This document shows, one piece after another, positions 2,043-62,200 of a DNA stretch of 64,000 bases. The position numbers and the translations under genes were made by a program. The notes under the pieces are model-generated. The model ran no database searches, was not told the DNA's origin, and saw only the letters and a program-made list of their open reading frames with translations. Source of the stretch: Cyanidioschyzon merolae (Eukaryota); NCBI GenBank assembly GCA_000091205.1, contig AP006494.2; one strand, 5' to 3'. How positions within the stretch are numbered: the first letter of the stretch is position 1; every line of letters starts with the position of its first letter.

Positions 2043-2165
2043 CACTTGCGTTCAAACCATAGCTGGAAACACCGCGTCCCATCTCGAATCGCGAAGTTAA
2101 GCAGCATTGGGCTCTCTGAGTACTGTGATGAGGGATCGCACGGGAAACGGGAGTGACGCAAGTTC
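2043..2165 (+). rRNA. 5S ribosomal RNA
   Basis: CCCATCTCGAATCGCGAAGTTAAGCAGCATTGGGC...GAGTACTGTGATGAGGGATCGCACGGGAAACGGGAGTG matches the eukaryotic/plant-type 5S consensus (CCCATC..GAAGTTAAGC..TTGGGC..AGTACT..GGGAA). The 5' ACTTGCGT (2044-2051) pairs with the 3' ACGCAAGT (2156-2163) as helix I. Length is about 122 nt. Confidence 0.8.
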
Positions 2166-2876: not shown

Positions 2877-5800
2877 TCAGCATTGTTTGCGAGTATCTCG
2901 CGCCACGGTCCATTCCGGGATCGAGGCATTCAACGCCGTCGCCGGGGATGCGCCCAGAGTCGCCGTGCTCGAGAGCGCCTCGCGTCGTGCAACTAAATTC
3001 AAGCGCTCTGCGAAAAGCTCCTTCCGGTAAATCTCTACCTGCTCCCGCTCCCGAAGGAACTCCTCTTCGAGCTGCTCAAGTACTTTCATCTTTTCTTCGA
3101 GTTTCCTCACCTGAGTCTCGATCGCCTGTTCAGTAGCCCGGTGCAGCTCTAGATGCTCAATGGCGGCGAGCTCCGCGGCCCGAGTGGCCGCAGCGCCAAG
3201 CGCCGTTGCCGCAACGGCCTGGATTGCATTCGCATCCGCAAGCGCTTCCGGTGGTGCGTCGCTTTTCATGATCGCTGCCAACGCGGCCCGGGCAGCAGCA
3301 GCAGCGACATCCGGCGAGACGCTGTTCGCGAGAAACGCAATATGCGCCATCAAGGGGTTTCCGGCGTCGGCGAAGAGCGGCGGCTCGTTTCGTTCGGTCT
3401 GCGCCGTCTCGCCAGCTACAGCGGGTACCGCTAAACGACTCAAATCATCCTCGAGAAACGGATCTTCAATGGGTAGACGAATGAATTTGGTGATGCACGC
3501 ATCGCGGGAACGAGTGCCAACGTGCTGAGCAACCGCATCCCAGTCATCACCGTATGCCTCGATTCCTTCGAGAAGCTGCAGCACCTCAACATCAGTCCAG
3601 TCGTCCGTGCTCGGAGCTGTGAGGGTTCCAGTGGCGCTAGCCGCCGACCCCAGCGATAGAACAGGTCTTAATTCGATGAAATCTTTTCCATTGAAGTCCT
3701 CGGGAAACTTGCCCTGATGGTAGCATTCGGGGCACAGGTCCATATCGGCCTTGAGCAAACAGTGGTACCGGCGTTGGGAGCAGTCTCTCCCGCACACGTC
3801 ACACTGGTACTCAATGGCTGCCGCTGCGGCATATAATTCACGGCGCGTTGCCATGGGCGCCAGATGCATGCGCGATTTCGGAATACGCGACCCGTCGTCA
3901 AACAAGAATATGCGAGGAAGTCCGCCCTCAAGACCAGCTGAGCTTGCTGCCAGGCTTCCCGAGCTGGTGGAGATAAGCGTCGCACCGGAACCCGAAAACC
4001 CGCCGCTAACAGTCTGTGGGCGCGTCTCGGGTGCCACTCCGTAGTTAATCAGGCCCCACTGCTCCAGAAAGGCGTGCACACGCATGACGGCACCCACATC
4101 GCCAGCGAGATGCCTCCGAACAGCTGTGCCTGTTAGGTAGCGGGTCGGATCCTGCCGCCACGTGTCAATCATAAAATTTCGGTAAAGCATGTATACTTCG
4201 GGCGTTTTCGAAGCAAATTTCCCAGAGAAAAACTCCGGCAACGCGCGTCGCTCAATGTCGTGAATCGCATCGATGCGAAACCATCGGCTGTGCGCGGGAA
4301 CACGAATCGGCGACTTTTCACCAATCGCCGTGGCAGCAGCCGCAGCCGGAAGCGTTTCCCGCTCCGCGAGGCCACCGAGTGCCTCGGCGACGCGACGCGG
4401 TGCAAGCGATTCTCGATCACGTGGCGCGTGTGCTGCCGGCCCCGGAAGCGCATCCTCTTCGGCTGCCGCAGCGTCATTCCGCTCTTTTCGTCGTTCGCGT
4501 AATGCTTCTCGCTGCTGTGCTAACCTCTTCTGTAGCTGCTCATCCCGCGAAGATGCAGTTACATTGCGCATGCGCAGTGTCGCGTCATCTGGAACTAGCG
4601 GACGCACCGCTGGGCGTGAAATGCGCGGTGCAGCGCCGGCCGCAGCGCTTGGCTGCTCCGCATCGACCGCAGCGCCAGTCTCCGTTGTGAACGTGATCGG
4701 GCCAGCAATATTCGGTGCCGGAACTTGCTCCGCGGGTGCATTGCTCGAGCTTCCCGCGTCCTGGCTCGCTATCGGCGGTGCCAAGCGAACCTTGATCTTC
4801 ATCGGCTCTGCGGATTCCTCTCGGACGGCGCGCACCGTCACCCGTTCTGGCGTGCCGTCTGGCTCCGGCTTCACGGGACTCGGTTCAGCGGATTTTCGTT
4901 TCGACGGCGTCGGTGCTGCGGTCTTCGACTCGGATCCTCGCAGGTGGCCATCGATGCGCGAGGCCGATGGCGGTTTCCACTCATCGACATTGAGCTTCTC
5001 CTCTTCGGGTATTACCTCATAGTCGTTTTCATTGCACCACTCATTGAACTTTTCGCAATCCTCGAGAAATCTTTTCTGCACATGCCATATTTTGCCCTCA
5101 ATCACTCCGGAGAGATTCTCCTCCTCTCCGTGCAGTTCGCCGTCGGGATCTTCTACCTCCTGAGCGGGAATCCATGAATCGTACGAATCGGGAAAGTACC
5201 ACCAGTGCGTCAGTACTTGATTCCCTTTCCTTTTCAGACTCACGCAGTAGTCCTCTGCCTCGGTCTCAGCCTCTGTCGTGCCGGGTGGATCGGGGTACAC
5301 AATATGTGTTGCCTCGCGAGGCGACGAAACGACGGACGCACCATGCTTCCTTGCAATGGCGCTGAGGCGGTCAATCTCCGCCGAACCCAATGCCGGTGCG
5401 AAAAACAACCGCGGCATCTGGAGCTGTTTCCGTTTTATCAGTTCCCGCTCAACTTCTTGGAGCATCTCTAAAAAAACTCCAGTCATATCGGGTTTGTGGA
5501 GATCAAAACGCCGTATTCCACGAGCAACCCTGAACCGAAAACAGCACTCGAGAATCGTACGCAATGAGCCGTGTGCCGAATAGTCGTGAAAGAGACGATT
5601 CGGCAGTTTCGTCATGAAACCCCGAATTTCTGGCGGCTCGACGGAGTTCCGTCCGAGAACCCGCTCTTGAAACTGAAGCAGGTTACCGGTCAGGAGGCTC
5701 AGCGCGCGCGGGGAGACGTCCACAGAGTCGCCGGGTCGAAACCCCAGTTGTTCCGGCGGTTCAGCGTTTAGCTGTGCCGAGATTGCCTCGAACTTCGCAA

Positions 5801-6044
5801 TTTGATGAGGATCCTCGTAGTCTTTCATGGATATATTACAGGACTTTACCCGCTTCCGCCGCGAATCCGCAGGTCTCTGACCTTCAGCTGACGGAAAAGC
5901 AGTGTCTTCCCGCGCATCCGCTGCAGCTCCTGTGCGCACTTCTTCAGACGGGGTAGACGTCGACTTGTTCCCGTCCGGGATGTGTGTTCCGTTGCCTTGC
6001 TGCTCTCGCGCGGTGCGGGAGCGTCTCTTCCGCGGGGGAACCAT
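2877..6044 (-). CDS. SWI/SNF complex subunit, SWI3/SMARCC family (SWIRM, ZZ zinc finger, SANT; SWI3D-like architecture)
   Basis: SWIRM: WFRIDAIHDIERRALPEFFSGKFASKTPEVYMLYRNFMIDTWRQDPTRYLTGTAVRRHLAGDVGAVMRVHAFLEQWGLINYGV. ZZ finger: YQCDVCGRDCSQRRYHCLLKADMDLCPECYHQGKFPED. SANT: DDWTDVEVLQLLEGIEAYGDDWDAVAQHVGTRSRDACITKF. C-terminal coiled coil. The track start at 6053 is a GTG; the first ATG in frame is at 6044 (MVPPRKRR). Confidence 0.85.
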   Translation of the reverse strand: MVPPRKRRSRTAREQQGNGTHIPDGNKSTSTPSEEVRTGAAADAREDTAFPSAEGQRPADSRRKRVKSCNISMKDYEDPHQIAKFEAISAQLNAEPPEQLGFRPGDSVDVSPRALSLLTGNLLQFQERVLGRNSVEPPEIRGFMTKLPNRLFHDYSAHGSLRTILECCFRFRVARGIRRFDLHKPDMTGVFLEMLQEVERELIKRKQLQMPRLFFAPALGSAEIDRLSAIARKHGASVVSSPREATHIVYPDPPGTTEAETEAEDYCVSLKRKGNQVLTHWWYFPDSYDSWIPAQEVEDPDGELHGEEENLSGVIEGKIWHVQKRFLEDCEKFNEWCNENDYEVIPEEEKLNVDEWKPPSASRIDGHLRGSESKTAAPTPSKRKSAEPSPVKPEPDGTPERVTVRAVREESAEPMKIKVRLAPPIASQDAGSSSNAPAEQVPAPNIAGPITFTTETGAAVDAEQPSAAAGAAPRISRPAVRPLVPDDATLRMRNVTASSRDEQLQKRLAQQREALRERRKERNDAAAAEEDALPGPAAHAPRDRESLAPRRVAEALGGLAERETLPAAAAATAIGEKSPIRVPAHSRWFRIDAIHDIERRALPEFFSGKFASKTPEVYMLYRNFMIDTWRQDPTRYLTGTAVRRHLAGDVGAVMRVHAFLEQWGLINYGVAPETRPQTVSGGFSGSGATLISTSSGSLAASSAGLEGGLPRIFLFDDGSRIPKSRMHLAPMATRRELYAAAAAIEYQCDVCGRDCSQRRYHCLLKADMDLCPECYHQGKFPEDFNGKDFIELRPVLSLGSAASATGTLTAPSTDDWTDVEVLQLLEGIEAYGDDWDAVAQHVGTRSRDACITKFIRLPIEDPFLEDDLSRLAVPAVAGETAQTERNEPPLFADAGNPLMAHIAFLANSVSPDVAAAAARAALAAIMKSDAPPEALADANAIQAVAATALGAAATRAAELAAIEHLELHRATEQAIETQVRKLEEKMKVLEQLEEEFLREREQVEIYRKELFAERLNLVARREALSSTATLGASPATALNASIPEWTVARDTRKQC

Positions 6045-6054
6045 GAAAAACACG

Positions 6055-6879
6055 TCACAGAGTTACTAGCTCCACCGAAAGACTTTCAATAGTCGATAGC
6101 TTGAATATCAGTATACAGTAGTGGCGAGCTGCGCGCCCTAGATCATACGTCTCCAACTGATGCGCAGATGCCTCCCTGTCTTTTTTGGACCGGCCATCTA
6201 CTACTGGTTTCAACTTGTTTCCGTAAAATTCCACCTGGAGAGGTTCCCCCACAAAGTTGGCTCTTGTCAACTCTGGAGGCCTTCTTTCCATCACCGCACA
6301 TCTCCTGATATTGATAGCGACATTAAAGTCTCGGTTCACAAACTCCATACGTTTCTTGCCATCATTGGTTGTACTATCCGATGTGATTAGTCCACGATCT
6401 TTCGCCATCCCTTCCGGTGACTGCTTCGTCAGCGCTCCGTACTTTGATATATCCACAGGGCTCCTCTGGCACTTTTCGATCTGCACGCTCTGGAGTGTGC
6501 AACCCAGCTCATGGTGTGTATACGATGTTCGGAACTCATCTACAGGTATCGTAACGAGACGCCTTGCGCACTCCTTGTACGCTCTTGTCGTCGGAGCTGG
6601 TGGACATCCTTTTTGGGTCATCCAGCGCCCTGTTCCGCACGCTACTACGAGCCTCTGACTTTCATCCTCTTTGAAGGCACTCAACTCATTGAAAAAATTC
6701 GCGAATGCACGCGGTTTCCCACAATACAAGTTCATACGCAAACGAGCCCACCGGGGCTTTGCATACTCATTCCACAGTGCATCCCAATGAGCAACGCGAA
6801 CTTCCATGAATTCCTGACAAGCTTGAAAGTCTGCTCCGCGGCTCGTCATCTGGTTCATAGCTTCAAGGTGCTCTTGCAT
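6055..6879 (-). CDS. TnpB/Fanzor-like protein, C-terminal region (RuvC-II/Zn-ribbon/RuvC-III)
   Basis: ...RRLVTIPVDEFRTSYTHHELGCTLQSVQIEKCQRS...GKKRMEFVNRDFNVAINIRRCAV. The '..yTS..C' block followed by 'NRDxNAAINI' is the hallmark C-terminus of TnpB/Cas12/Fanzor RuvC nucleases. The start is a genuine ATG at 6877-6879. Confidence 0.6.
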   Translation of the reverse strand: MQEHLEAMNQMTSRGADFQACQEFMEVRVAHWDALWNEYAKPRWARLRMNLYCGKPRAFANFFNELSAFKEDESQRLVVACGTGRWMTQKGCPPAPTTRAYKECARRLVTIPVDEFRTSYTHHELGCTLQSVQIEKCQRSPVDISKYGALTKQSPEGMAKDRGLITSDSTTNDGKKRMEFVNRDFNVAINIRRCAVMERRPPELTRANFVGEPLQVEFYGNKLKPVVDGRSKKDREASAHQLETYDLGRAARHYCILIFKLSTIESLSVELVTL

Positions 6880-14325: not shown

Positions 14326-14694
14326 CGCGTCGACCATGCATCAAACCTGGACCAACATGGACATATACATACCTGGAACAATATCCTACCCTATCCGTGA
14401 ACGATCATCGTGTCCCAGTATTCGACATTCATGCATATACCGTAAAACTGCACGCTTGGATAGTGCCTTTGGCCTTCAATCCATGCAAGCATCGGAACGG
14501 CATCCAGCGAGAGCTCAAGATGGCGCCTCACGTGCAAAGCACGAAGGACTGCAATGCGGACAGCAGGCTGGGCGCTGTCCACCGCGCGTTCCTGCCAGCT
14601 GCGCAAGCGCCGCCATCGGCTCGAGCTGCAATCTCCACACACGTGCGCGTACCGTAGCGCTGGAAAATGTTCGGTCAGTGTTCTGGGCGCCGCT

Positions 14695-16341
14695 ATGTCG
14701 AGTGTCCTGGAAGACTTTGGTAACGTTCTTGATTCAAGTCGTTGTGGGTATTGTGGTGACAATGAGCAATGTACAGATAATACTGAAGGAGAGCGCTGCG
14801 GGAGTCTCGCAGCGCATACCGAGCGTCGAAGGCGGCGTCTCCGGGGAGCGCTGTGGGCGCATCGCCTTCGCCTCGAGGACTACCGCGTGCTCATGGACCA
14901 TGGTTGGCGCCGTTCTGGTTGCTTCTTGTATTATCCAGATAACGATCATGGGTGCTGTCCACAGTACGCTGTTCGAGTGCCGCTATGGGATTTTGAACTG
15001 ACTCGCTCTCAACGACGCGTGCTGCGACGCTGGCAAAACTTTGTCTCGGTGCAAGGCGACCTCGCAGAACGTTGTTTCATTTTCTACGGTTTGACCATTA
15101 GCTCCAATTTGGAGAGCGCGAAACCATTACCTAGCGCAAAGCTGAACAAGACCGAACTGCAGCCTGTGGCCCCAAAACCCGTTGATGACCGTCTGGAGCA
15201 GTTGCGAATACACCTGGAACCGTCTCTGCAGCGAGTCCCGGTGAAAAGACGGCAAGTGAGTGGAGGCGCCCATTTCACCACCGCCATCGCCTGGAAACTC
15301 GCTTACGAGCATCGAACTTTTGTGACGCAAGAAGCAGAGCAACTCGCAGCCCGTCTCTGGGATCGAGGTGCAGCTCAGTTGGGGATCACCAGGATGGAGG
15401 TCTCCAACGGACACGTGAACCTTTACGATAGTCTGACGCAGAGCGCTACAGAGACGGAATGCCGAAGCTCCAGGAATCCATGCGCTCGTGCGGAACTGCC
15501 CGATAAACCCATTCGCTCGAAACCGGTACTCCGGATGGAGTTGCTCCCAGCAGCGTATCGCGAGGATGCTTTTCATTTATATTGCAAATATCAACGGCGG
15601 GTCCACGGCGACACAGACGAAGAGCTCAAGCCAGATCGATATAGTCGTTTTCTCGTCGAGCATCCTTTTCACGACGACGGAAAAGGTCGGCGACTCGGTG
15701 TCTCCCATCTCCATTTTTACATCGATGATGTGCTTGTCATTGTGAGCGTTCTCGACATGCTACCGGGTTATTTATCGAGCAAGTACTGTTTCTACGATCC
15801 TGACCTTCCGTCTCGTTTATCGCCTGGCATATTTGCCGCGTTATGTGAAATCCAACTGGCATGGACACACCTGGGCGCCAGTCATTATTACCTTGGGTAC
15901 TACATCCATAGCTGTAGCAAAATGCGGTACAAGGTCTCCTTTCGCAAGGCGCAACTTCTTTGTGGTCACTGCTTTCGATGGCAACCGTTCGCGAATGTTG
16001 CTCGTGACGCTCTCGATCGGGACGAGCATTGCGTTGGCTTCTGCAATAGATCCAGAGCAGCTACGGCTACGGATGATGCGAACGGTGCTCCTGGTGTTGG
16101 CGTTCGTGGTGTGGAGGAGCGTCATTCACGAGCCGCCGACGCCCGACTCGAGAAAGTCTTGGTTTGGCTGCTGGACGCTTCGGGTTGCTCCGCGGCATTG
16201 GCACCACAGCCGTTGTCGAGCGTGGAAACCGTCGAGCTCAGGGAGCGAATCCGTGCGGCTCTGCAGCGCTTGGCCGCAATGGTTCCTCCCAGCTTCTTGG
16301 AACGAATCATATACCTTCCGCCAAGGCAGGTGTTTTCCTAG
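14695..16341 (+). CDS. ATE1: Arginyl-tRNA-protein transferase (ATE1, N-end rule arginyltransferase)
   Basis: N-terminal Cys cluster CGYCGDNEQC, YRVLMDHGWRRSGCFLYYPDNDHGCCPQYAVRV (ATE_N), and C-terminal LGYYIHSCSKMRYKVSFRKAQLL (ATE_C). First ATG is at 14695 (the track start is an upstream alternative codon). Confidence 0.85.
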   Translation: MSSVLEDFGNVLDSSRCGYCGDNEQCTDNTEGERCGSLAAHTERRRRRLRGALWAHRLRLEDYRVLMDHGWRRSGCFLYYPDNDHGCCPQYAVRVPLWDFELTRSQRRVLRRWQNFVSVQGDLAERCFIFYGLTISSNLESAKPLPSAKLNKTELQPVAPKPVDDRLEQLRIHLEPSLQRVPVKRRQVSGGAHFTTAIAWKLAYEHRTFVTQEAEQLAARLWDRGAAQLGITRMEVSNGHVNLYDSLTQSATETECRSSRNPCARAELPDKPIRSKPVLRMELLPAAYREDAFHLYCKYQRRVHGDTDEELKPDRYSRFLVEHPFHDDGKGRRLGVSHLHFYIDDVLVIVSVLDMLPGYLSSKYCFYDPDLPSRLSPGIFAALCEIQLAWTHLGASHYYLGYYIHSCSKMRYKVSFRKAQLLCGHCFRWQPFANVARDALDRDEHCVGFCNRSRAATATDDANGAPGVGVRGVEERHSRAADARLEKVLVWLLDASGCSAALAPQPLSSVETVELRERIRAALQRLAAMVPPSFLERIIYLPPRQVFS

Positions 16342-18560
16342 AGCAGCTCGCTTGCCAATTTGCTGAGCTCGCTACGTTCGCCTTTTTCTAATGTTACGTG
16401 TGCATAAAGTGATTGTCCCTTCATTCGTTCGATCAAATAAGAGAGACCATTGCTATGTCCATCAACATAGGGGTTGTCGATCTGATGAAGATCGCCGCAG
16501 AGAACCACTTTGGTCCCTTCGCCAGCTCGGGTTATGATCGTTTTGACCTCATGTGGGGTTAGGTTTTGGCTCTCGTCCACGATCAGAAACGTACGACTGA
16601 GCGATCGTCCTCGGATGTACGCCAGGGCCGCGATTTTGATCCGCTCGCTTGCCATCATATCATCGATCTCGCGGCTGCGCGCGGTGGGCACAACTTTGCC
16701 ATTATCTTTGGTGTGCAAATGCGCAGCTTTGATGACGCCGAGATTGTCGTAGAGTGGCTGCATGTAGGGCGCGAGTTTTTCGTCCAAGTCGCCTGGGAGG
16801 AAGCCGACATCGCGGTTGCCCAATGGGACAATAGGTCGCGAGACGAATATCTGCTCGTAAAAGCCGCGACTCGTCATTTCCAGAGCGGCAGCCAGACAGA
16901 GCAGGGTTTTCCCGGTGCCAGCGACGCCGCATATGGTGACCAGCGGTATCGATGGGTCTAATAGGACGCGCAGCGCGAAGGTTTGCTCCGCGTTACGCGG
17001 CATGATTCCGTATGCTGAGACTCGATCAACTCGCTGAAATGTGAAATCACCGCAATCCTTGGACATCGCGAATGTAGCAAGCACCGAGCTCGACGCATTT
17101 CGAAGGATGAAATGCTCGTTCGGAAGGGGCTTCATTGCGAACGAATCTTCAGCAGTAGCAGCAGGAGCAGCAGCACTTGCTGCTTGCGGTGCGCAAGTTC
17201 CGTCGGGTGCGACATCATTCTCTTTTGACGCTGCTGGGTTCGCGAGGCTCCGCTTGTGCATGATTTGTTGTCCGAGCCAATGTATAGCGCTCCGCGCGGT
17301 CTCTGATGGAACAAATCCGACATCGTTGGTGGATTTCTCAGCACAACATGCACTGGCGTGTGATCGCATGAGCGAAGTGAACTCCGCTGCGGTCAGTCCT
17401 TCTGCTCGCCCAACTAGCGCTTCGATCAGTTCGTTCGGTACGTTTTCGATAAGTCGCTGGCCTAAATATAGCTTGCTAATGCTCTCAACCCGATCCTGTT
17501 CGTAGTCTTCGGCATGGAGGCCCAACGCACGAGCCTTCATGCGCAGGTTCACATCCTTGGTGACTAGGACCACACGCTCGTAAAGCAACCGCTGGCCCGC
17601 ATGGTTTGTTTGCAACACCGATCCATACACGGAATCGGTGAGCTCGCCTTCCTCCGGAGGCGGCGTCCACGTTGGTGGCTCAGCCGACTCTGCAACAGCA
17701 AGCGCGTGGACAGAAGCCAGTATCCGCATGTCGGGGCTGTCGTAGAAAAAAAGGCGCTCCATGCGAGCATCTCTGCAATGGAGCGAAATACGCACCGATC
17801 CGTGCTCGGCATTCTCCTTGTTCAGCGGGACGCCCTGAACTAACCAGTCTCGAGAAGACGGTGAAGCGGCCGTAAGATTCCAGTCTCCAGTCCCGGAACC
17901 ATCTCGCGCGGAAAATTTGCTCCCCCGCAGGTGCGCGCTTGCGCAGTCTTTCGATTCTGCGGCAGGCTGGTCGTTCCGCGCAGCACGGCTGTGAAGTATA
18001 GTCATTTCGTCGAGCATCCGCAGAAACTCTCGAGCGTGAAAATGAATCTCCTCGTTCCCACGCTTAAACTTATCCAGCTCTTCTAGAACGGTGATTGGCA
18101 AACAAATATCGTGATGACCAAACCGCCACAGGCATGAAGAGTCGTGCAGAATAACGTTCGTATCCAGGACGTAGAGCCGGCGCCCGAGGAGAATCGGCGG
18201 TGTTCGATGCATCCCTTGCTCCCCGTTTGCGCTAGCGGAGGCGACATCTTCTGCTGCTTCTGGTCCGCGTTTTCGTGCCGAACGTTCACGGTACTGCTGT
18301 ACAATGCCACCGAACCCGACCCCAGAGCCAACCGGAACCACGCCGTGCAGCGCAACTGCACGACCGATGTAGCGCATATCGCGGGGACCACCGCCTCGAC
18401 CAGACGAGGCGTACACGTGTCCAGGACGCGTGAATGTGCGACAGGAGTGCCGGGTTCGGCTGCGGAGGCCCCGACCTGGAAGCGGGCTTGTACTTCGGAA
18501 CGGCACCGCTTGACCTCCGTGTACGCTCGTGCAGCTGTACGCAATCAGCGGTCGAGCCAT
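16338..18560 (-). CDS. PIN-domain plus PhoH-like ATPase fusion protein (PhoH2/YlaK type) with a long low-complexity N-terminal extension and an inter-domain insert
   Basis: PIN: LYVLDTNVILHDSSCLW...ICLPITVLEELDKFK. PhoH: ICGVAGTGKTLLCLAAAL (P-loop), RPIVPLGNRDVGFLPGDLDEKLAPYMQPLYDNL, FLIVDESQNLTPHEVKTIITRAGEGTKVVLCGDLHQID. Its stop codon (cta, 16338-16340) overlaps the ATE1 stop (tag, 16339-16341). Confidence 0.8.
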   Translation of the reverse strand: MARPLIAYSCTSVHGGQAVPFRSTSPLPGRGLRSRTRHSCRTFTRPGHVYASSGRGGGPRDMRYIGRAVALHGVVPVGSGVGFGGIVQQYRERSARKRGPEAAEDVASASANGEQGMHRTPPILLGRRLYVLDTNVILHDSSCLWRFGHHDICLPITVLEELDKFKRGNEEIHFHAREFLRMLDEMTILHSRAARNDQPAAESKDCASAHLRGSKFSARDGSGTGDWNLTAASPSSRDWLVQGVPLNKENAEHGSVRISLHCRDARMERLFFYDSPDMRILASVHALAVAESAEPPTWTPPPEEGELTDSVYGSVLQTNHAGQRLLYERVVLVTKDVNLRMKARALGLHAEDYEQDRVESISKLYLGQRLIENVPNELIEALVGRAEGLTAAEFTSLMRSHASACCAEKSTNDVGFVPSETARSAIHWLGQQIMHKRSLANPAASKENDVAPDGTCAPQAASAAAPAATAEDSFAMKPLPNEHFILRNASSSVLATFAMSKDCGDFTFQRVDRVSAYGIMPRNAEQTFALRVLLDPSIPLVTICGVAGTGKTLLCLAAALEMTSRGFYEQIFVSRPIVPLGNRDVGFLPGDLDEKLAPYMQPLYDNLGVIKAAHLHTKDNGKVVPTARSREIDDMMASERIKIAALAYIRGRSLSRTFLIVDESQNLTPHEVKTIITRAGEGTKVVLCGDLHQIDNPYVDGHSNGLSYLIERMKGQSLYAHVTLEKGERSELSKLASELL

Positions 18561-18714
18561 CGTTGTGCCTTCGCACGAGCACGCTTTTCAATTCCGCAGT
18601 TACTGAGGCTCACTGCCAAAAGACAAAGCTTCTAAAGTGCTTCTATACTGCAAGAAGAAGTCTGCGTGCCCGCAGCGGGCAGGCGTGCAACGTGCGTACC
18701 CTACTTCAAGAGGA

Positions 18715-18730
18715 GCACACACACACACAC
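18715..18730. repeat. (CA)8 microsatellite
   Basis: cacacacacacacaca read directly. Confidence 0.9.
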
Positions 18731-19399
18731 AAGCCTCGGCAACGAATCGCTGAAGCGCGCGCATGGACCACTGTCGGGTGACGAGCTTCGCATCTTCGCG
18801 CCTGGATTATGAACCTGTACATCAAGGACATTCGCATGACGTTGCGCGCTCGCCAGCCACAACACGCTGCAAGTCCGTTGCGTGCGCTCCCGGCGTTGTG
18901 CATAGCGTGATGTACGAGGGCGCTTCACCACGAGGAACGCGCGGTGAGTGAAATACGATGCCCCTAGGCAGTGCTATGTATTGGTGGTGTTTTGCGGATC
19001 TTGGGTGTCCGGTGCGGCACGATGGCTGTTTCTGGCGACGTCGATAACCAGTGCGCACCCTGTGATTGACGACTCTGCGCAAAGAAACCTCCATCGAATA
19101 CGTCATGCATCTTGTTCCTGAAGACGCGGCCCTTTCGAGTACCAAAGGCTAGGGCGGACCCCGTATCTAGCATGGTGTGTTCGGAGTCTGGCCAGCGCAC
19201 CTCATTGATTCATATGCTCGCTGAATTCCGACGTGGTGATCATTCTGGACCTCATAGAGCTCGCAGACCTTTTGAACAGAATCATATTTTAGGCCATTGA
19301 AGGCGGCTGCGAGCGTCAATACCGTGGTAACTTGCAACGTTCACCGACGCGCACCATGACGCATACCGGGGAGCGGCGCACGTTGTCGCCGCGCGCAGT

Positions 19400-20833
19400 A
19401 TGGAAAGCTGTGACCGTTTGTACCAGATATATACAGAATCGAATGACCCGTTCACTGCGCCTGCGCCTCAATCCGCATCATTGACATCACGCGCTCTTGC
19501 AGTAACGATGATGAGACTTGAGGCTCGGTCCATGAAACCCTGCACGCTAGACGGAGCGAGTGATCCAGACCTACAACGAGCCAATGAAGCTTTCGTGTGG
19601 TCGACCGCACCCGGTGGTGAACGAGCAACTGGCGCTGTCCAGCGCAGAGAGTCGTACACTAGGCAGCGCCACTGGCCGCGTCCGTGGCGTCCCGCATTGA
19701 GCGCGGACAACTGGCGCAAGTGTCGTTTCAGTGCCGCAAGGGGAAGCCCGTTTCTATCTGGGAGTGCACGTGCACTCGAGACTTCGTTGCACAGCCGCTA
19801 CCCTGCGTTGAACAGTGCTGTTCCAGGTGGCCACGTGTCTATGCAGTATGGGCAGGCTGCGACTGCACGAGACGCGAACGAGGCCCGTACCGGCGTCTAC
19901 CAACCTAGCATAGAAGCAAAGCTTAAAACACTAACTGAAAAGGTTAAACTTGCGTGTGTGCAGTGCAGAGCGCCGCTGGAACTAGATAGCGCTAATCGTT
20001 TGCGCTGCCCGAACGGTCACGGCGAGGCGAGCTGGATTCAGGTCAGCGAAAAGAGCAGAGGTGGCGGCTTTTGGGACCTGACACCGCAAAGGTTCCGCTA
20101 CAACGTAGATGAACGTCCTCGAGGACCTTCTGTGGAACTTCGTCGAGACCTCTTCCAGAGCCCTTTCGTCGCCTTTTTGTACGAGCGTGGGTGGCGAGAC
20201 CAGTTCCGATCTTCGGGATTTCCCGGCCCCGATGCTGAGTTTCGCATCGTTCAGAGCTTTTTCAAGGGCGCAAACTGCGTTATGGATCTAAGCTGTGGTT
20301 CCGGACTTTTTACTCGTCGCCTTGCGGCTAGCGGGGATTTTGACCACGTCATCGCTGTGGACTACTCAGAGGCAATGCTGCGCGAGTTGGTCGAACGAGC
20401 GGAGCGCGAGCCGCTACCTGAACGCATCGGTGGCGGCTTTGTGTCTGATCGTATCACTGGCATCATTCGCGCTGACGTGGAGCGTTTACCTTTCGCCAAT
20501 GAGTCTATCGACTGTATTCACGCTGGTGCTGCGTTGCACTGCTGGCCCTGCGTCCAGGACGGACTCCATGAAGTGTATCGGATTTTGCGGCCCAGCAAGG
20601 GGCCAGGCTCCGGTCGTTTTCTGGCAACGACATTCCTGTGGTCGACGTCGCCGTTTGGACTCGCGGTCCGTGAAGGTCGTCTGCTTAGCCCGAGCGCCGG
20701 GTATCGCTTCTTCGATGCAAAAGAACTTGAGTGGCTTGTGAAGAGCGCTGGTTTCGAGCGGGTAGAAATTGAGGTGATTCGTCAATGTGCGATCATTCGT
20801 GCCTGGAAAGAACCGAGGGCACGGCACGGATAG
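19400..20833 (+). CDS. Class I SAM-dependent methyltransferase of the plant plastoglobule/Zn-ribbon type (Methyltransf_11), with an about 170-aa N-terminal extension
   Basis: CVQCRAPLELDSANRLRCPNGH (Zn-ribbon-like), then FVAFLYERGWRDQFRSSGFPGPDAEF...VMDLSCGSGLFTRRLAASGDFDHVIAVDYSEAML (motif I), then CIHAGAALHCWP. This closely resembles the plant family with SPFVSFLYERGWRQ.F..SGFPGPDEEF. Confidence 0.7.
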   Translation: MESCDRLYQIYTESNDPFTAPAPQSASLTSRALAVTMMRLEARSMKPCTLDGASDPDLQRANEAFVWSTAPGGERATGAVQRRESYTRQRHWPRPWRPALSADNWRKCRFSAARGSPFLSGSARALETSLHSRYPALNSAVPGGHVSMQYGQAATARDANEARTGVYQPSIEAKLKTLTEKVKLACVQCRAPLELDSANRLRCPNGHGEASWIQVSEKSRGGGFWDLTPQRFRYNVDERPRGPSVELRRDLFQSPFVAFLYERGWRDQFRSSGFPGPDAEFRIVQSFFKGANCVMDLSCGSGLFTRRLAASGDFDHVIAVDYSEAMLRELVERAEREPLPERIGGGFVSDRITGIIRADVERLPFANESIDCIHAGAALHCWPCVQDGLHEVYRILRPSKGPGSGRFLATTFLWSTSPFGLAVREGRLLSPSAGYRFFDAKELEWLVKSAGFERVEIEVIRQCAIIRAWKEPRARHG

Positions 20834-60185: not shown

Positions 60186-61084
60186 CATCCGTTCGGAACC
60201 AGGGTCGATTTGTCCCAGGTTTCAGACCGGAATGCACGAGCGAGACAAGATGCGGATGATACTTAGTTGCGTCGCCAACGATGTTATTAGCGGAAATGAC
60301 CTTCAGGCACCATAGCCAGTGCGCCAGCTAACCCGTTGCCATTTCTTGTTCCACGCAGTGATGAACGAGCCCCTGAAAGCGCACAGAACCTCGGTCTCTG
60401 GCAAGGTATGATGAGCGCTGTGGTAACGCTGCTGCTCCATCGCGTGCGTCCTGTCGCTGCTGCCTGCTGCTTTTCTTAACGTTGTCGGGGAACAGGAATG
60501 GACGGCGGTACAGGGAACGGGTTGTGCAAAGCCCCGGAACGCTCGTGGCGTTTCGTACACGCCTCTCGTGCCGACTCGAGCGCTAGACTCGTAGCAGTAA
60601 ACAAGATAACGTAACATTTTGTGAACATGTTGGCAGATGTCACGCAGGTTGGGAGCAGTCACGTTTGTTATCTCTGCGCGTTTCGAGATAACGCGCCCGT
60701 GGACGACCCTGTGCTCAGCACGGGGCGTGCTACTTGACACCATCTATACTTGCATCCACAGGTCGAGAACGTCGCACGCAGTCACTGCGTCTACATCAGT
60801 CGGTTTCCAGTCAGCGTACCCGAATCCGGCCCATGTGCTCCGTTTCGGAAGCGTGGCATTCCCATAAACGCTGCACGGTGCGCTGCACTGGGCAGAACGC
60901 TGAACAAGCGTGCACGCAAAAAGACGATCACGATGACTTGTTCCTCGTCAGTGCAGTCTGCGTACCTGCATTCCCGTCAACAAACCGCCACAAACGGAAC
61001 AGGGTGCCTCAGGTGCAGAGGCTGGAGCGTCGCGGCAGTACGCATCCGTCTCCCCGACTAGTCGCATGCAGGTACTGGAGCGCA

Positions 61085-61316
61085 TCGCCCATGACGCATC
61101 CATTCCGAATGCTAGGATCTATGGTCAATCTACACGTTTCGTCCTCTGAAAAAGAATCGCCCATGACGCATCCATTCCGAATGCTAGGATCTATGGTCAA
61201 TCTACACGTTTCGTGCTCTGAAAAAGAATCGCCCATGACGCATACATTCCGAATGCTAGGATCTATGGTCTATCTACACGTCTCGTGCTCTGAAAAAGAA
61301 TCGCCCATGACGCTGC
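61085..61316. repeat. 72-bp tandem repeat (minisatellite), 3.2 copies
   Basis: Unit cgcccatgacgcatccattccgaatgctaggatctatggtcaatctacacgtttcgtcctctgaaaaagaat repeated at 61085, 61157, 61229, plus a partial at 61301, with a few substitutions. It ends about 100 bp upstream of the SDR start codon. Confidence 0.9.
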
Positions 61317-61420: not shown

Positions 61421-62200
61421 ATGGACTTTCGTAGTGACGCTCTACAGGGAAAAGTGGCAGTGATAACTGGTGCGAGCCGCGGCATCGGTGCCGCCATCGC
61501 CGAGTGCTTCCTCGAGGCCGGTGTCCAGGGTTTGGCGCTCATTAGTCGTACGCCAAGCGAGTTTGTGACTCAGTTGCGGAAACGAGCGGAATCTCGCGGC
61601 ACAAAAGTGGGTTTCTATTCACTGAACCTGGCCGACACGGAAGCCGTGGAGCGAACAGCGCGACAGATCGTACAGGACTGGGAACACGTTGACATTCTTG
61701 TGAACAACGCGGGGATAGCGCTCCTGAACCCCTTGACAGAGCTGAGCACCGTGGACTGGGATCTCACCATGACCGTGAATGTGCGTGCGCCTTTTCTGCT
61801 CTCGCGGATATTCGTTCGGGAGTCAATGATCCCGCGAGGCGCAGGAGGCAAGATCATCCATATCAGTTCGGTAGCGGCATTCGGCGGTGTACCAGAGCAC
61901 GCGGCCTATTGTGCATCCAAGGCAGCGCTCAACTCGCTGACAAAGACCATGGCCGTAGAATGGGGTCCATACGGAATTCAATGCAATGTCGTATGCCCGT
62001 CAATCATTATGACGGACATGGGACGCCAAGTTTGGGAAGATCCCGAGAAACACGGCCCGGTACTGGCGCGGGTACCGATCGGACGTTTTGCCAACCCGCC
62101 AGAAATTGCTCGGGTGGTGCTCTTTCTCGCCAGTCCTGAAAACTGTGTGGTGAACGGGCAGTGTATTGCTCCGGATGGTGGGTACACCGCTGGCCTCTGA
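61421..62200 (+). CDS. Short-chain dehydrogenase/reductase (SDR family, classical; FabG/DCXR-like)
   Basis: KVAVITGASRGIGAAIA (TGxxxGxG), NNAGI, catalytic S...YCASKAAL (YxxxK), and the PG motif CPSIIMTDM. Genuine ATG. Confidence 0.85.
   Translation: MDFRSDALQGKVAVITGASRGIGAAIAECFLEAGVQGLALISRTPSEFVTQLRKRAESRGTKVGFYSLNLADTEAVERTARQIVQDWEHVDILVNNAGIALLNPLTELSTVDWDLTMTVNVRAPFLLSRIFVRESMIPRGAGGKIIHISSVAAFGGVPEHAAYCASKAALNSLTKTMAVEWGPYGIQCNVVCPSIIMTDMGRQVWEDPEKHGPVLARVPIGRFANPPEIARVVLFLASPENCVVNGQCIAPDGGYTAGL

Follow-up and report, generated by a model that had tools for sequence, protein, structure and literature searches.

A nuclear PIN–PhoH fusion gene of PhoH2/YlaK type in Cyanidioschyzon merolae, shared by red algae and glaucophytes and probably encoding a plastid-imported enzyme

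We identified a gene of the PhoH2/YlaK type in a 64,000-nucleotide stretch of the Cyanidioschyzon merolae genome (hereafter, the window). The interpretation that we favor, and hold to be fairly probable, is that the gene was anciently acquired and that its product is a plastid-imported enzyme that would unwind and cleave RNA at the expense of ATP; we infer both its location and its activity. The open reading frame starts with ATG and encodes 740 amino acids, which are 100% identical over all 740 residues to BAM80687.1 (XP_005536723.1) of C. merolae 10D. The C. merolae gene itself is already annotated, as "similar to phosphate starvation-inducible ATPase PhoH". Its main features are listed below, with the supporting evidence in parentheses.

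16338..18560, minus strand: PhoH2/YlaK-type gene, 740 amino acids plus stop (ORF, Pfam PIN_4 and PhoH, 100% identity)
17493..18179, minus strand: PIN_4 nuclease domain, residues 128–356 (Pfam, alignment, core pLDDT above 90)
16380..17006, minus strand: PhoH P-loop ATPase/helicase domain, residues 519–727 (Pfam, invariant motifs, structural match)
16905–16928, minus strand: Walker A motif GVAGTGKT, residues 545–552 (motif invariant in alignments)
16572–16583, minus strand: Walker B motif IVDE, residues 660–663 (motif invariant in alignments)

Pfam places PIN_4 (PF13638) at residues 130–354 (E 1e-26, full-length profile) and PhoH (PF02562) at residues 519–727 (E 1e-48), and the protein is colinear with planctomycete proteins, which bears out the bacterial-type PIN–PhoH fusion proposed in the initial annotation. 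The catalytic-type acidic residues of the PIN domain, for which that annotation advised an alignment, are conserved: D133, E160/E161, D336, and D352 are invariant among 50 aligned sequences, and D356 is nearly so, being kept in at least 90% of them. In the PhoH domain, G545, G548, G550, K551, T552, and D662-E663 are invariant. Both cores are modeled with pLDDT above 90. The closest structural match of the model is the PhoH protein 3b85 (TM 0.83), which is also the only PDB relative that the sequence search found (E 6e-26), followed by the SF1 helicases UPF1, RecD, and Dda. Identity between Cyanidioschyzon and Cyanidiococcus reaches 83–97% in the PIN core and in the PhoH segments but only 21–35% in the inserts and the N-terminus, a difference that indicates purifying selection. 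By its sequence, the gene is intact and nuclear, and probably functional.

The protein is a member of the wider PhoH2/YlaK family (COG1875), as judged by its domain order and whole-length colinearity with Rv1095 of Mycobacterium tuberculosis, PhoH2 of M. smegmatis, and YlaK of Bacillus subtilis, and by the retention of the PIN acidic residues, the Walker A and B motifs, and the C-terminal LASELL. Unlike these bacterial genes, the algal gene is nuclear and single, without an upstream phoAT-like partner; its product carries an N-terminal extension and three disordered inserts, and its nearest bacterial relatives are planctomycete-type rather than actinobacterial. The score against NCBIfam NF053827 (RNA 5'-3' helicase PhoH2) was 237.6 bits, below the equivalog cut-off of 680, and the protein is therefore not closely equivalent to the mycobacterial enzyme that has been characterized biochemically, a hexameric ATP-dependent RNA helicase and sequence-specific RNase (PMC7390352). 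Nor did it group with PhoH proteins that lack PIN. The stand-alone PhoH proteins (Escherichia coli PhoH/YbeZ, Corynebacterium glutamicum 3b85, and cyanophage phoH) share the ATPase fold, but have no PIN nuclease domain.

Two functional assignments were rejected. A PhoAT–PhoH2 type II toxin–antitoxin module does not match a monocistronic gene in a eukaryotic nucleus without phoAT; the poorly conserved 5' end of the PhoH2 gene is overlapped only by unconserved short ORFs. Anti-phage defense systems (PADLOC) gave just weak P-loop matches over about 60 residues (Nhi, E 3e-7; AbiO, E 4e-6). phoAT is also missing in Chlamydiota and Synechococcus. SYNW1946 of Synechococcus WH8102 is, like the algal protein, a PIN–PhoH protein of an oxygenic phototroph without phoAT, and it restrains cyanophage Syn9, indicating that the family is able to act against foreign nucleic acid; it differs in being located on a genomic island, where its operon also encodes a DNA-binding protein (PMC5490813). 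The top matches showed no close kinship between SYNW1946 and the algal clade.

By analogy with the bacterial enzymes, the C-terminal PhoH P-loop ATPase would bind and unwind RNA using ATP and pass it to the N-terminal PIN_4 domain, a putative metal-dependent endoribonuclease. In the bacterial enzyme, the PhoH part probably works as a hexameric ring. The algal enzyme probably has plastid RNA as its substrate and would serve in its turnover, its quality control, or the response to stress. Helicase and endonuclease are similarly paired on RNA in eukaryotic nonsense-mediated decay, where SMG6 belongs to the same PIN_4 family (PMC5499597) and UPF1 has an SF1 helicase core of related fold. SMG6 and UPF1, however, are separate cytosolic proteins of eukaryotic descent, and the likeness is an analogy of mechanism, not shared family membership.

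The initial annotation suggested an organelle-targeted protein or a domesticated one derived by horizontal transfer. Bacterial descent with a targeting-type N-terminus added remains the best reading, but the gene is not peculiar to the C. merolae genome, being common to several red-algal classes and to glaucophytes. Orthologs are present in the Cyanidiophytes Cyanidiococcus, Cyanidium, and Galdieria (two species), in the mesophilic red algae Rhodosorus, Timspurckia, and Porphyridium (on an 883-kb nuclear contig), and in the glaucophytes Cyanophora (two isoforms of one gene model in the genome) and Cyanoptyche. In the alignment, every red alga has a 4-residue insert, and every red alga as well as the two glaucophytes has an insert of 8–20 residues following the 'VIK' motif; neither is found in the bacteria shown. 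An N-terminal extension is present in every algal ortholog.

In alignments, the surplus length of the C. merolae protein consists of an N-terminal extension of about 127 residues, two inserts within PIN, and one insert in the PIN–PhoH linker:

18387..18560, minus strand: residues 1–58, fast-evolving Arg/Ser/Thr-rich N-terminus, transit-peptide-like (composition, alignment, pLDDT)
18267..18386, minus strand: residues 59–98, conserved Gly/Val-rich block PRDMRYIGRAVALHGVVPVGSGVGFGGIVQQYRERSARKR (ortholog alignment)
17841..18005, minus strand: insert 1 inside PIN, residues 186–240, lineage-specific and predicted to be disordered (alignment, pLDDT)
17583..17684, minus strand: insert 2 inside PIN, residues 293–326 (alignments, pLDDT)
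17133..17378, minus strand: insert 3 in the PIN–PhoH linker, residues 395–476 (alignments, pLDDT)

The N-terminus had been described as a low-complexity extension of 115 residues; an extension does exist, but it is not merely of low complexity. Residues 1–58 share 21–29% identity with close orthologs, are missing from bacteria, and have a pLDDT of about 31. Residues 59–98 are 85% identical in Cyanidiococcus, 80% in P0135, and 68% in Cyanidium, against 21–41% in the flanks; this block is limited to three genera and is not present in the other lineages aligned. The large insert noted earlier between PIN and PhoH was likewise recovered (insert 3), although the two inserts inside PIN had been overlooked. 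Insert 1 is gapped in bacteria and Rhodosorus, is 24% identical to that of Cyanidiococcus, and has a pLDDT below 50 at residues 209–233. Insert 2 has a pLDDT of about 50–60 over residues 301–320, falling below 50 only at 316–320. Insert 3, with a pLDDT below 50 at residues 425–469, is confined to the Cyanidioschyzon/Cyanidiococcus/Cyanidium group.

The extension gained in algae is most likely a plastid transit peptide. Transit peptides of rhodophyte and glaucophyte plastids carry a plastid-specific, N-terminal phenylalanine-based motif (PMC7038456), and five orthologs from four lineages begin with MAFLTAF, MGFVFS, MAFVFG, MAFCCL, or MAGFILAVP, starts that fit this motif. On these N-terminal motifs, plastid import of algal PhoH2 is probable. 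The motif is weakest in the C. merolae protein itself (MARPLIAYSC), because Arg replaces the position-3 Phe of close relatives and Tyr occurs only at position 8. This N-terminus is also Arg-rich, with no acidic residue before position 61, and would suit a mitochondrial presequence as well; mitochondrial import of the same enzyme, or dual import into mitochondrion and plastid, is nevertheless an unlikely alternative, since the MAF, MGF, and MAGF starts are a plastid-specific signal and the Pro/Gly/Ser-rich extension of C. merolae is not predicted to be helical. No PhoH entry was found in the N-terminome supplements for the Cyanophora cyanelle, and our literature search found no report on the localization, expression, activity, or function of PhoH in Cyanidioschyzon, other red algae, or Cyanophora.

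Residues 59–98 are much better conserved than expected of a transit peptide, which raises a second alternative: a cytosolic or nuclear protein whose extension, with this block, either anchors it to a membrane or regulates or autoinhibits it as a fused functional counterpart of the PhoAT antitoxin. Like SMG6 and UPF1, such a protein would act on viral RNA or on RNA encoded in the nucleus. A small partner protein can restrain bacterial PhoH2 (PMC7390352), and a co-transcribed partner is impossible in a eukaryote; the resemblance of the PhoH fold to UPF1 and the inclusion of SMG6 in PIN_4 (PMC5499597) point the same way. However, beyond the three genera with the block, the extensions share only the N-terminal Phe motif, and the structure model gives the block neither a confident structure nor a confident docking onto the protein. 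We regard this explanation, too, as improbable, and retain plastid import.

The bacterial relatives of the enzyme bear on its origin. An exhaustive profile search returned 20,343 family matches, and the top bacterial cluster in searches was Planctomycetaceae. Planctomycete proteins of 443–446 residues are 41–44% identical over 83% of the query and colinear with it (57–61% over the positions aligned in multiple alignments). A neighbor-joining tree (129 taxa, 435 columns, 500 replicates; no named cyanobacterial PIN–PhoH sequence included) recovered the red algae (73%), the glaucophytes (100%), and the two together (77%), and joined this algal clade with Planctomycetota, Marinimicrobia, and one FCB-group sequence at 63%. 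The method is a simple distance one and support is moderate; long-branch attraction could have grouped the fast-evolving algal sequences. The sequences suggest an ancient transfer from a bacterium before red algae and glaucophytes diverged, with Planctomycetota and their neighbors, rather than cyanobacteria, nearest to the putative donor lineage, and the gene would have been retained since under purifying selection. More specifically, the shared ancestor of Archaeplastida may have captured the gene from a planctomycete-like (PVC-type) bacterium and added a phenylalanine-type transit peptide, a scenario that we put forward only tentatively. A phage origin was rejected: named Bacillus and Vibrio phage PhoH2 proteins are at most 35% identical, and the only closer record in the phage search was an unannotated 5.6-kb fragment (48%).

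A gene that is spread over red algae and glaucophytes and whose product is likely plastid-targeted shows the classic hallmarks of endosymbiotic gene transfer, and cyanobacteria do possess PIN–PhoH genes, such as SYNW1946 (PMC5490813). Descent from the cyanobacterial plastid ancestor instead of a planctomycete-like donor is, however, quite unlikely: no cyanobacterium occurs among the best 120 matches, named or unnamed, of three sequence searches or the best 80 bacterial species-genome matches, Planctomycetaceae form the top bacterial cluster, and the Synechococcus gene is not core because it sits on a genomic island (PMC5490813). A plasmid search for named cyanobacterial relatives found none, its best matches being to Bacteroidales (48%). 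A recent extremophile-specific transfer into Cyanidiales, bacterial contamination, or a decaying pseudogene is highly improbable: although the top-scoring non-algal matches are bacterial and about 1% of Cyanidiales genes are reported to be horizontally acquired (PMC6629376), the first is ruled out by the mesophilic red-algal and glaucophyte orthologs with shared indels, and the others by the position of the gene between ATE1 and a methyltransferase gene on an 859-kb chromosome, by synteny kept in three genera, by a GC content in line with the window, and by the intact ORF with its invariant catalytic motifs.

The setting is eukaryotic, as initially described, with SWI3, TAF8, actin, TFIIB, and a VEFS-box protein encoded in the same window; tRNA and Rfam scans of the window detected no RNA gene near the locus. 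The immediate neighborhood is as follows:

14554..16341, plus strand: ATE1 (arginyl-tRNA-protein transferase), convergent neighbor (Pfam ATE_N and ATE_C)
16338..16341, no strand assigned: CTAG with both TAG stops, a 4-nt overlap of coding sequences (sequence)
18561..19399, no strand assigned: 839-bp divergent intergenic region, presumed promoter region (ORF map)
19400–20833, plus strand: methyltransferase gene, upstream neighbor across the 839-bp region (ORF map)

The ATE1 ORF matches ATE_N (PF04376, E 8e-18) and ATE_C (PF04377, E 2e-35), and ortholog alignment suggests that its real start is probably M48 at 14695. The initial annotation correctly stated that the two stop codons share two nucleotides: the plus-strand TAG lies at 16339–16341, and positions 16338–16340, read on the complementary strand, give the minus-strand TAG. 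Cyanidiococcus has the identical CTAG arrangement (L001 12160–12163) and the same methyltransferase gene upstream. The adjacency is also kept in Cyanidium, with a 110-bp spacer, but not in Galdieria, where an unrelated gene pair shows a similar 4-nt overlap. To call the arrangement an extreme case of genome compaction was an overstatement, as the remaining convergent gene pairs of the window are 262–1395 bp apart. The CTAG overlap is a local loss of spacer inherited by Cyanidioschyzon and Cyanidiococcus, which would have occurred in their common ancestor. With both stops in one CTAG, any 3' UTR of either gene is antisense to the coding sequence of its partner, and this geometry implies that the PhoH2 and ATE1 transcripts would overlap. 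Cyanidiophyceae have lost RNAi (PMC12770821), and an antisense overlap is probably tolerated because Dicer and Argonaute are absent. Our literature search yielded nothing usable on 3' ends or antisense transcripts in C. merolae.

Published accounts of PhoH2 (PMC5499597, PMC7390352, PMC12038028) assign these proteins to bacteria, archaea, and phages, and we found no discussion of eukaryotic PhoH2 in the literature searched. The value of the present findings is moderate because neither the enzyme clade nor the CTAG overlap alters a major concept. The CTAG stops are a neat, conserved case of convergent genes that abut completely, here in an organism without RNAi, and the pair could serve as a test case for transcriptional interference and for the formation of 3' ends within the coding sequence of a neighbor. 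C. merolae would be tractable by gene targeting, and the gene would be an easy knockout target. If plastid-targeted, the red-algal and glaucophyte clade would extend the enzymes of organellar RNA decay by a PIN nuclease coupled to a helicase, and it would be a further anciently acquired non-cyanobacterial gene in Archaeplastida. Capture from a PVC-type bacterium, if true, would mean that plastid RNA metabolism or plastid defense has an ancient component of non-cyanobacterial descent that is so far undescribed.

The minus-strand ORF at 16338-18560 in the ORF map of the window has an ATG start and encodes a 740-aa PIN-PhoH protein. All of its residues (740/740, 100% identity) match BAM80687.1/XP_005536723.1 of Cyanidioschyzon merolae 10D, annotated as "similar to phosphate starvation-inducible ATPase PhoH" in a record on an 859-kb chromosome, and public databases already carry an annotation of the gene. 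The GC content at the locus (0.56) is like that of the rest of the window, whose other ORFs include SWI3, TAF8, actin, TFIIB, a VEFS-box polycomb protein, and ketopantoate hydroxymethyltransferase; the locus lies in ordinary red-algal nuclear chromosome sequence. When the protein is aligned to its algal orthologs and to ~445-aa bacterial PhoH2 proteins, the bacterial sequences are matched from end to end. The C. merolae protein carries 295 residues beyond the bacterial length, in four parts.

Segments of the C. merolae PIN-PhoH protein (extension and inserts from the alignment with bacterial PhoH2)
N-terminal ~127 aa: extension
Residues 59-98 (window 18267-18386, minus strand): block PRDMRYIGRAVALHGVVPVGSGVGFGGIVQQYRERSARKR within the otherwise fast-evolving extension
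Residues 130-354: PIN_4, complete domain (Pfam, E 1e-26)
Residues ~186-240 and ~293-326: two inserts within the PIN domain
Residues ~395-476: insert in the PIN-PhoH linker
Residues 519-727: PhoH domain (Pfam, E 1e-48)

The initial annotation described a large insert between the two domains; one insert does lie in the linker, and it is one of three. The PIN acidic residues are conserved when aligned, as all 50 sequences of an alignment share D133, E160/E161, D336, and D352, and at least 90% of them share D356. Walker A (G545-x-x-G-T-G-K-T552) and Walker B (D662-E663) are both conserved, with G545, G548, G550, K551, T552, and D662-E663 invariant in the same alignment, and the C. merolae protein and bacterial PhoH2 alike terminate in LASELL. 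The AlphaFold2 model has a mean pLDDT of 72, exceeding 90 in the PIN and PhoH cores, falling below 50 at residues 1-88, 98-116, 209-233, 316-320, and 425-469, and lying mostly at ~50-60 in the second insert (residues 301-320). Its best solved-structure match is the PhoH ATPase 3b85 (TM 0.83), with the SF1 helicases UPF1, RecD, Dda, and nsp13 next.

Between Cyanidioschyzon and Cyanidiococcus, the catalytic segments share 83-97% identity, whereas the inserts and residues 1-58 share 21-35%, a pattern that marks purifying selection on the enzyme core. Residues 59-98 share 85% identity with Cyanidiococcus and 68% with Cyanidium, and this block has no counterpart outside these three algae among the aligned algal orthologs and bacteria. 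It is hydrophobic and Gly/Val-rich with arginines on both sides; possible roles are membrane anchoring, a second sorting signal, or a regulatory peptide. The AlphaFold2 model is uninformative in this region.

Orthologs are present in Cyanidiococcus (72% identity to C. merolae), Cyanidium (57%), two species of Galdieria, Rhodosorus (Stylonematophyceae), and the Porphyridiophyceae Timspurckia and Porphyridium (KAA8493072.1, "protein YlaK", on a contig of about 884 kb), as well as in the glaucophytes Cyanoptyche and Cyanophora (genome gene model, two isoforms). An exhaustive profile search covered 1.84 billion cluster representatives; of the seven with the highest scores, five (P0002, P0005, P0265, P0280, and P0282) bear red-algal or glaucophyte source names. 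The other two are P0007, a metagenome protein with Galdieria yellowstonensis in its 90% cluster, and a Planctomycetaceae cluster at rank six, scoring above Porphyridium. No green-lineage homologs were seen among the top matches.

Two indels support common descent of the algal proteins: a 4-aa insert at residues 499-502 is found in every red alga, and an 8-20-aa insert past the conserved VIK motif (~616-626) in every red alga and both glaucophytes, both being absent from the bacteria compared. A neighbour-joining tree (129 sequences, 435 columns, 500 bootstraps), which is a simple distance tree without a named cyanobacterial PIN-PhoH, groups the red algae (73%), the glaucophytes (100%), the two together (77%), and this algal clade with Planctomycetota/Marinimicrobia and one FCB-group sequence (63%). 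Support in the tree is moderate, with long-branch attraction possible. Among species-level bacterial genomes, the best 80 matches belong to Planctomycetota, Bacteroidota, Ignavibacteriota, Myxococcota, Marinimicrobia, and others, and none of these 80 is cyanobacterial. A recent or extremophile-specific acquisition is ruled out by the ortholog range, the shared indels, and the tree. The simplest history would be a single ancient transfer from a non-cyanobacterial bacterium that predates the divergence of red algae and glaucophytes, followed by losses from the lineages in which the gene is not found. The first reading of the gene as bacterial-type, and as organelle-targeted or domesticated after HGT, was largely right, and is refined here in that the acquisition appears to be ancient.

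The algal orthologs all begin with an extension, 71-245 aa long, and the bacterial proteins have none. The orthologs begin as follows.

N-terminal starts of algal PIN-PhoH orthologs
Close Cyanidioschyzon-group relative: MAFLTAF
Rhodosorus: MGFVFS and MAFVFG
Rhodosorus relative: MGFVGG
Porphyridium: MAFCCL
Cyanophora: MAGFILAVP
Cyanoptyche: MSMTLLGFAAPVF

Plastid-targeted precursors of rhodophytes and glaucophytes carry an aromatic residue, usually phenylalanine, at the extreme N-terminus (PMC7038456). From this mark, plastid import is the best-supported localisation predicted for the algal family. The C. merolae protein starts with MARPLIAYSC. Its first 40 residues include six Arg and nine Ser/Thr, and acidic residues are missing from positions 1-60, so that it resembles a transit peptide at its N-terminus. 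Tyr8 is the sole aromatic residue there, so the plastid call is weaker for this protein. We found no experimental localisation of an algal PIN-PhoH in the literature searched.

In mycobacterial PhoH2, a PIN RNase is joined to a PhoH RNA helicase, and the enzyme shows ATP-dependent unwinding and sequence-preferring cleavage; it probably assembles into a hexameric ring delivering RNA to the PIN domains, and is held in check by PhoAT, a small co-transcribed protein (PMC7390352). A Synechococcus PIN-PhoH curbs cyanophage replication (PMC5490813). Since all catalytic motifs are retained, we infer the same chemistry as in mycobacterial PhoH2 for the algal protein, which would act as a PhoH2-type helicase/RNase on the RNA of whichever compartment it enters. 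No phoAT-like partner is present at the C. merolae locus, the protein scores 237.6 bits against the curated equivalog model of mycobacterial PhoH2 (cut-off 680), and the PADLOC defence models yield only weak P-loop similarity. These results place it in the broad YlaK/PhoH2 family; the toxin-antitoxin subtype is ruled out by the missing phoAT and the sub-cut-off score. At the sequence level the protein groups with bacterial PhoH2/YlaK and would share its working mode, but it differs in being nuclear-encoded, in its N-terminal extension, in its lineage-specific disordered inserts, and in having no antitoxin.

The gene converges on ATE1 (arginyl-tRNA-protein transferase).

Convergent pairs with overlapping stop codons
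Window 14554-16341, plus: ATE1 ORF (Pfam ATE_N and ATE_C)
Galdieria partita locus L003, 871-3018, plus: LepA-like GTPase
Galdieria partita locus L003, 3015-3782, minus: HVSL protein

Window 16338-16341 reads CTAG, in which the ATE1 TAG occupies 16339-16341 and the PIN-PhoH TAG is the complement of 16338-16340; as first noted, the stop codons have two bases in common, and the coding sequences overlap by four. Cyanidiococcus has the same four-base overlap (...CTC TAG|G, again CTAG). In Cyanidium the genes are still convergent neighbours, 110 bp apart, with a TGA stop in PhoH2, and in Galdieria partita they are not adjacent. PhoH2 ends in the universally conserved LASELL, and ATE1 ends 3-5 variable residues past a conserved Y[LI]PP. 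Because both proteins end at their natural positions, the overlap reflects complete spacer loss in the ancestor shared by Cyanidioschyzon and Cyanidiococcus, not chance ORF extension. The "extreme case of genome compaction" initially proposed is overstated, as the overlap is local and other convergent pairs in the window lie 262, 995, and 1395 bp apart. Nor is the overlap unique: the unrelated G. partita pair overlaps by four bases, TTAG, at 3015-3018, so stop-codon overlaps recur in Cyanidiophyceae. By geometry, any 3' UTR of PhoH2 or ATE1 is antisense to the partner's coding sequence. Argonaute and Dicer have been lost in Cyanidiophyceae (PMC12770821), which plausibly removes one cost of the overlap.

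Several other features of the window were recorded.

Window 2044-2164, plus: complete 5S rRNA gene (Rfam RF00001, 94 bits), just downstream of an unusually GC-rich first 2 kb (0.67)
Window 2877-33771: gene order kept in Cyanidiococcus (SWI3, two small genes, ATE1, PhoH2, methyltransferase, TAF8, actin)
Window 6055-6879, minus: 274-aa ORF with no Pfam match, ending two bases before the GTG listed as start of the SWI3 ORF (2877-6053)
Window 14554-14694: ATE1 ORF upstream of M48 (14695)
Window 61084-61313: tandem repeat (72-bp unit, 3.2 copies, 97% matches) just upstream of ORF 61421-62200

The first ATG of ATE1 is probably not its start, as the Cyanidiococcus and Cyanidium proteins start exactly at or close to the position that aligns with M48, and no counterpart exists for the 47 residues before it. 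The 274-aa ORF may be a separate small gene, or a spurious ORF in the GC-rich stretch that precedes the true SWI3 start. The SWI3 homolog is two gene calls in Cyanidiococcus (583 and 335 aa) and a single ORF in C. merolae (1058 aa) and Cyanidium (1055 aa), so the Cyanidiococcus assembly may contain a split gene model or a frameshift.

PhoH2 has been described as bacterial, archaeal, and phage-borne (PMC5499597; PMC7390352; PMC12038028), and we found no paper on a eukaryotic PhoH2, although such genes carry annotations in C. merolae and Porphyridium. Of secondary interest, as a curiosity, is the conserved overlap of the stop codons in CTAG. The main interest lies in a probable ancient, non-cyanobacterial, plastid-directed RNA helicase-nuclease common to red algae and glaucophytes.
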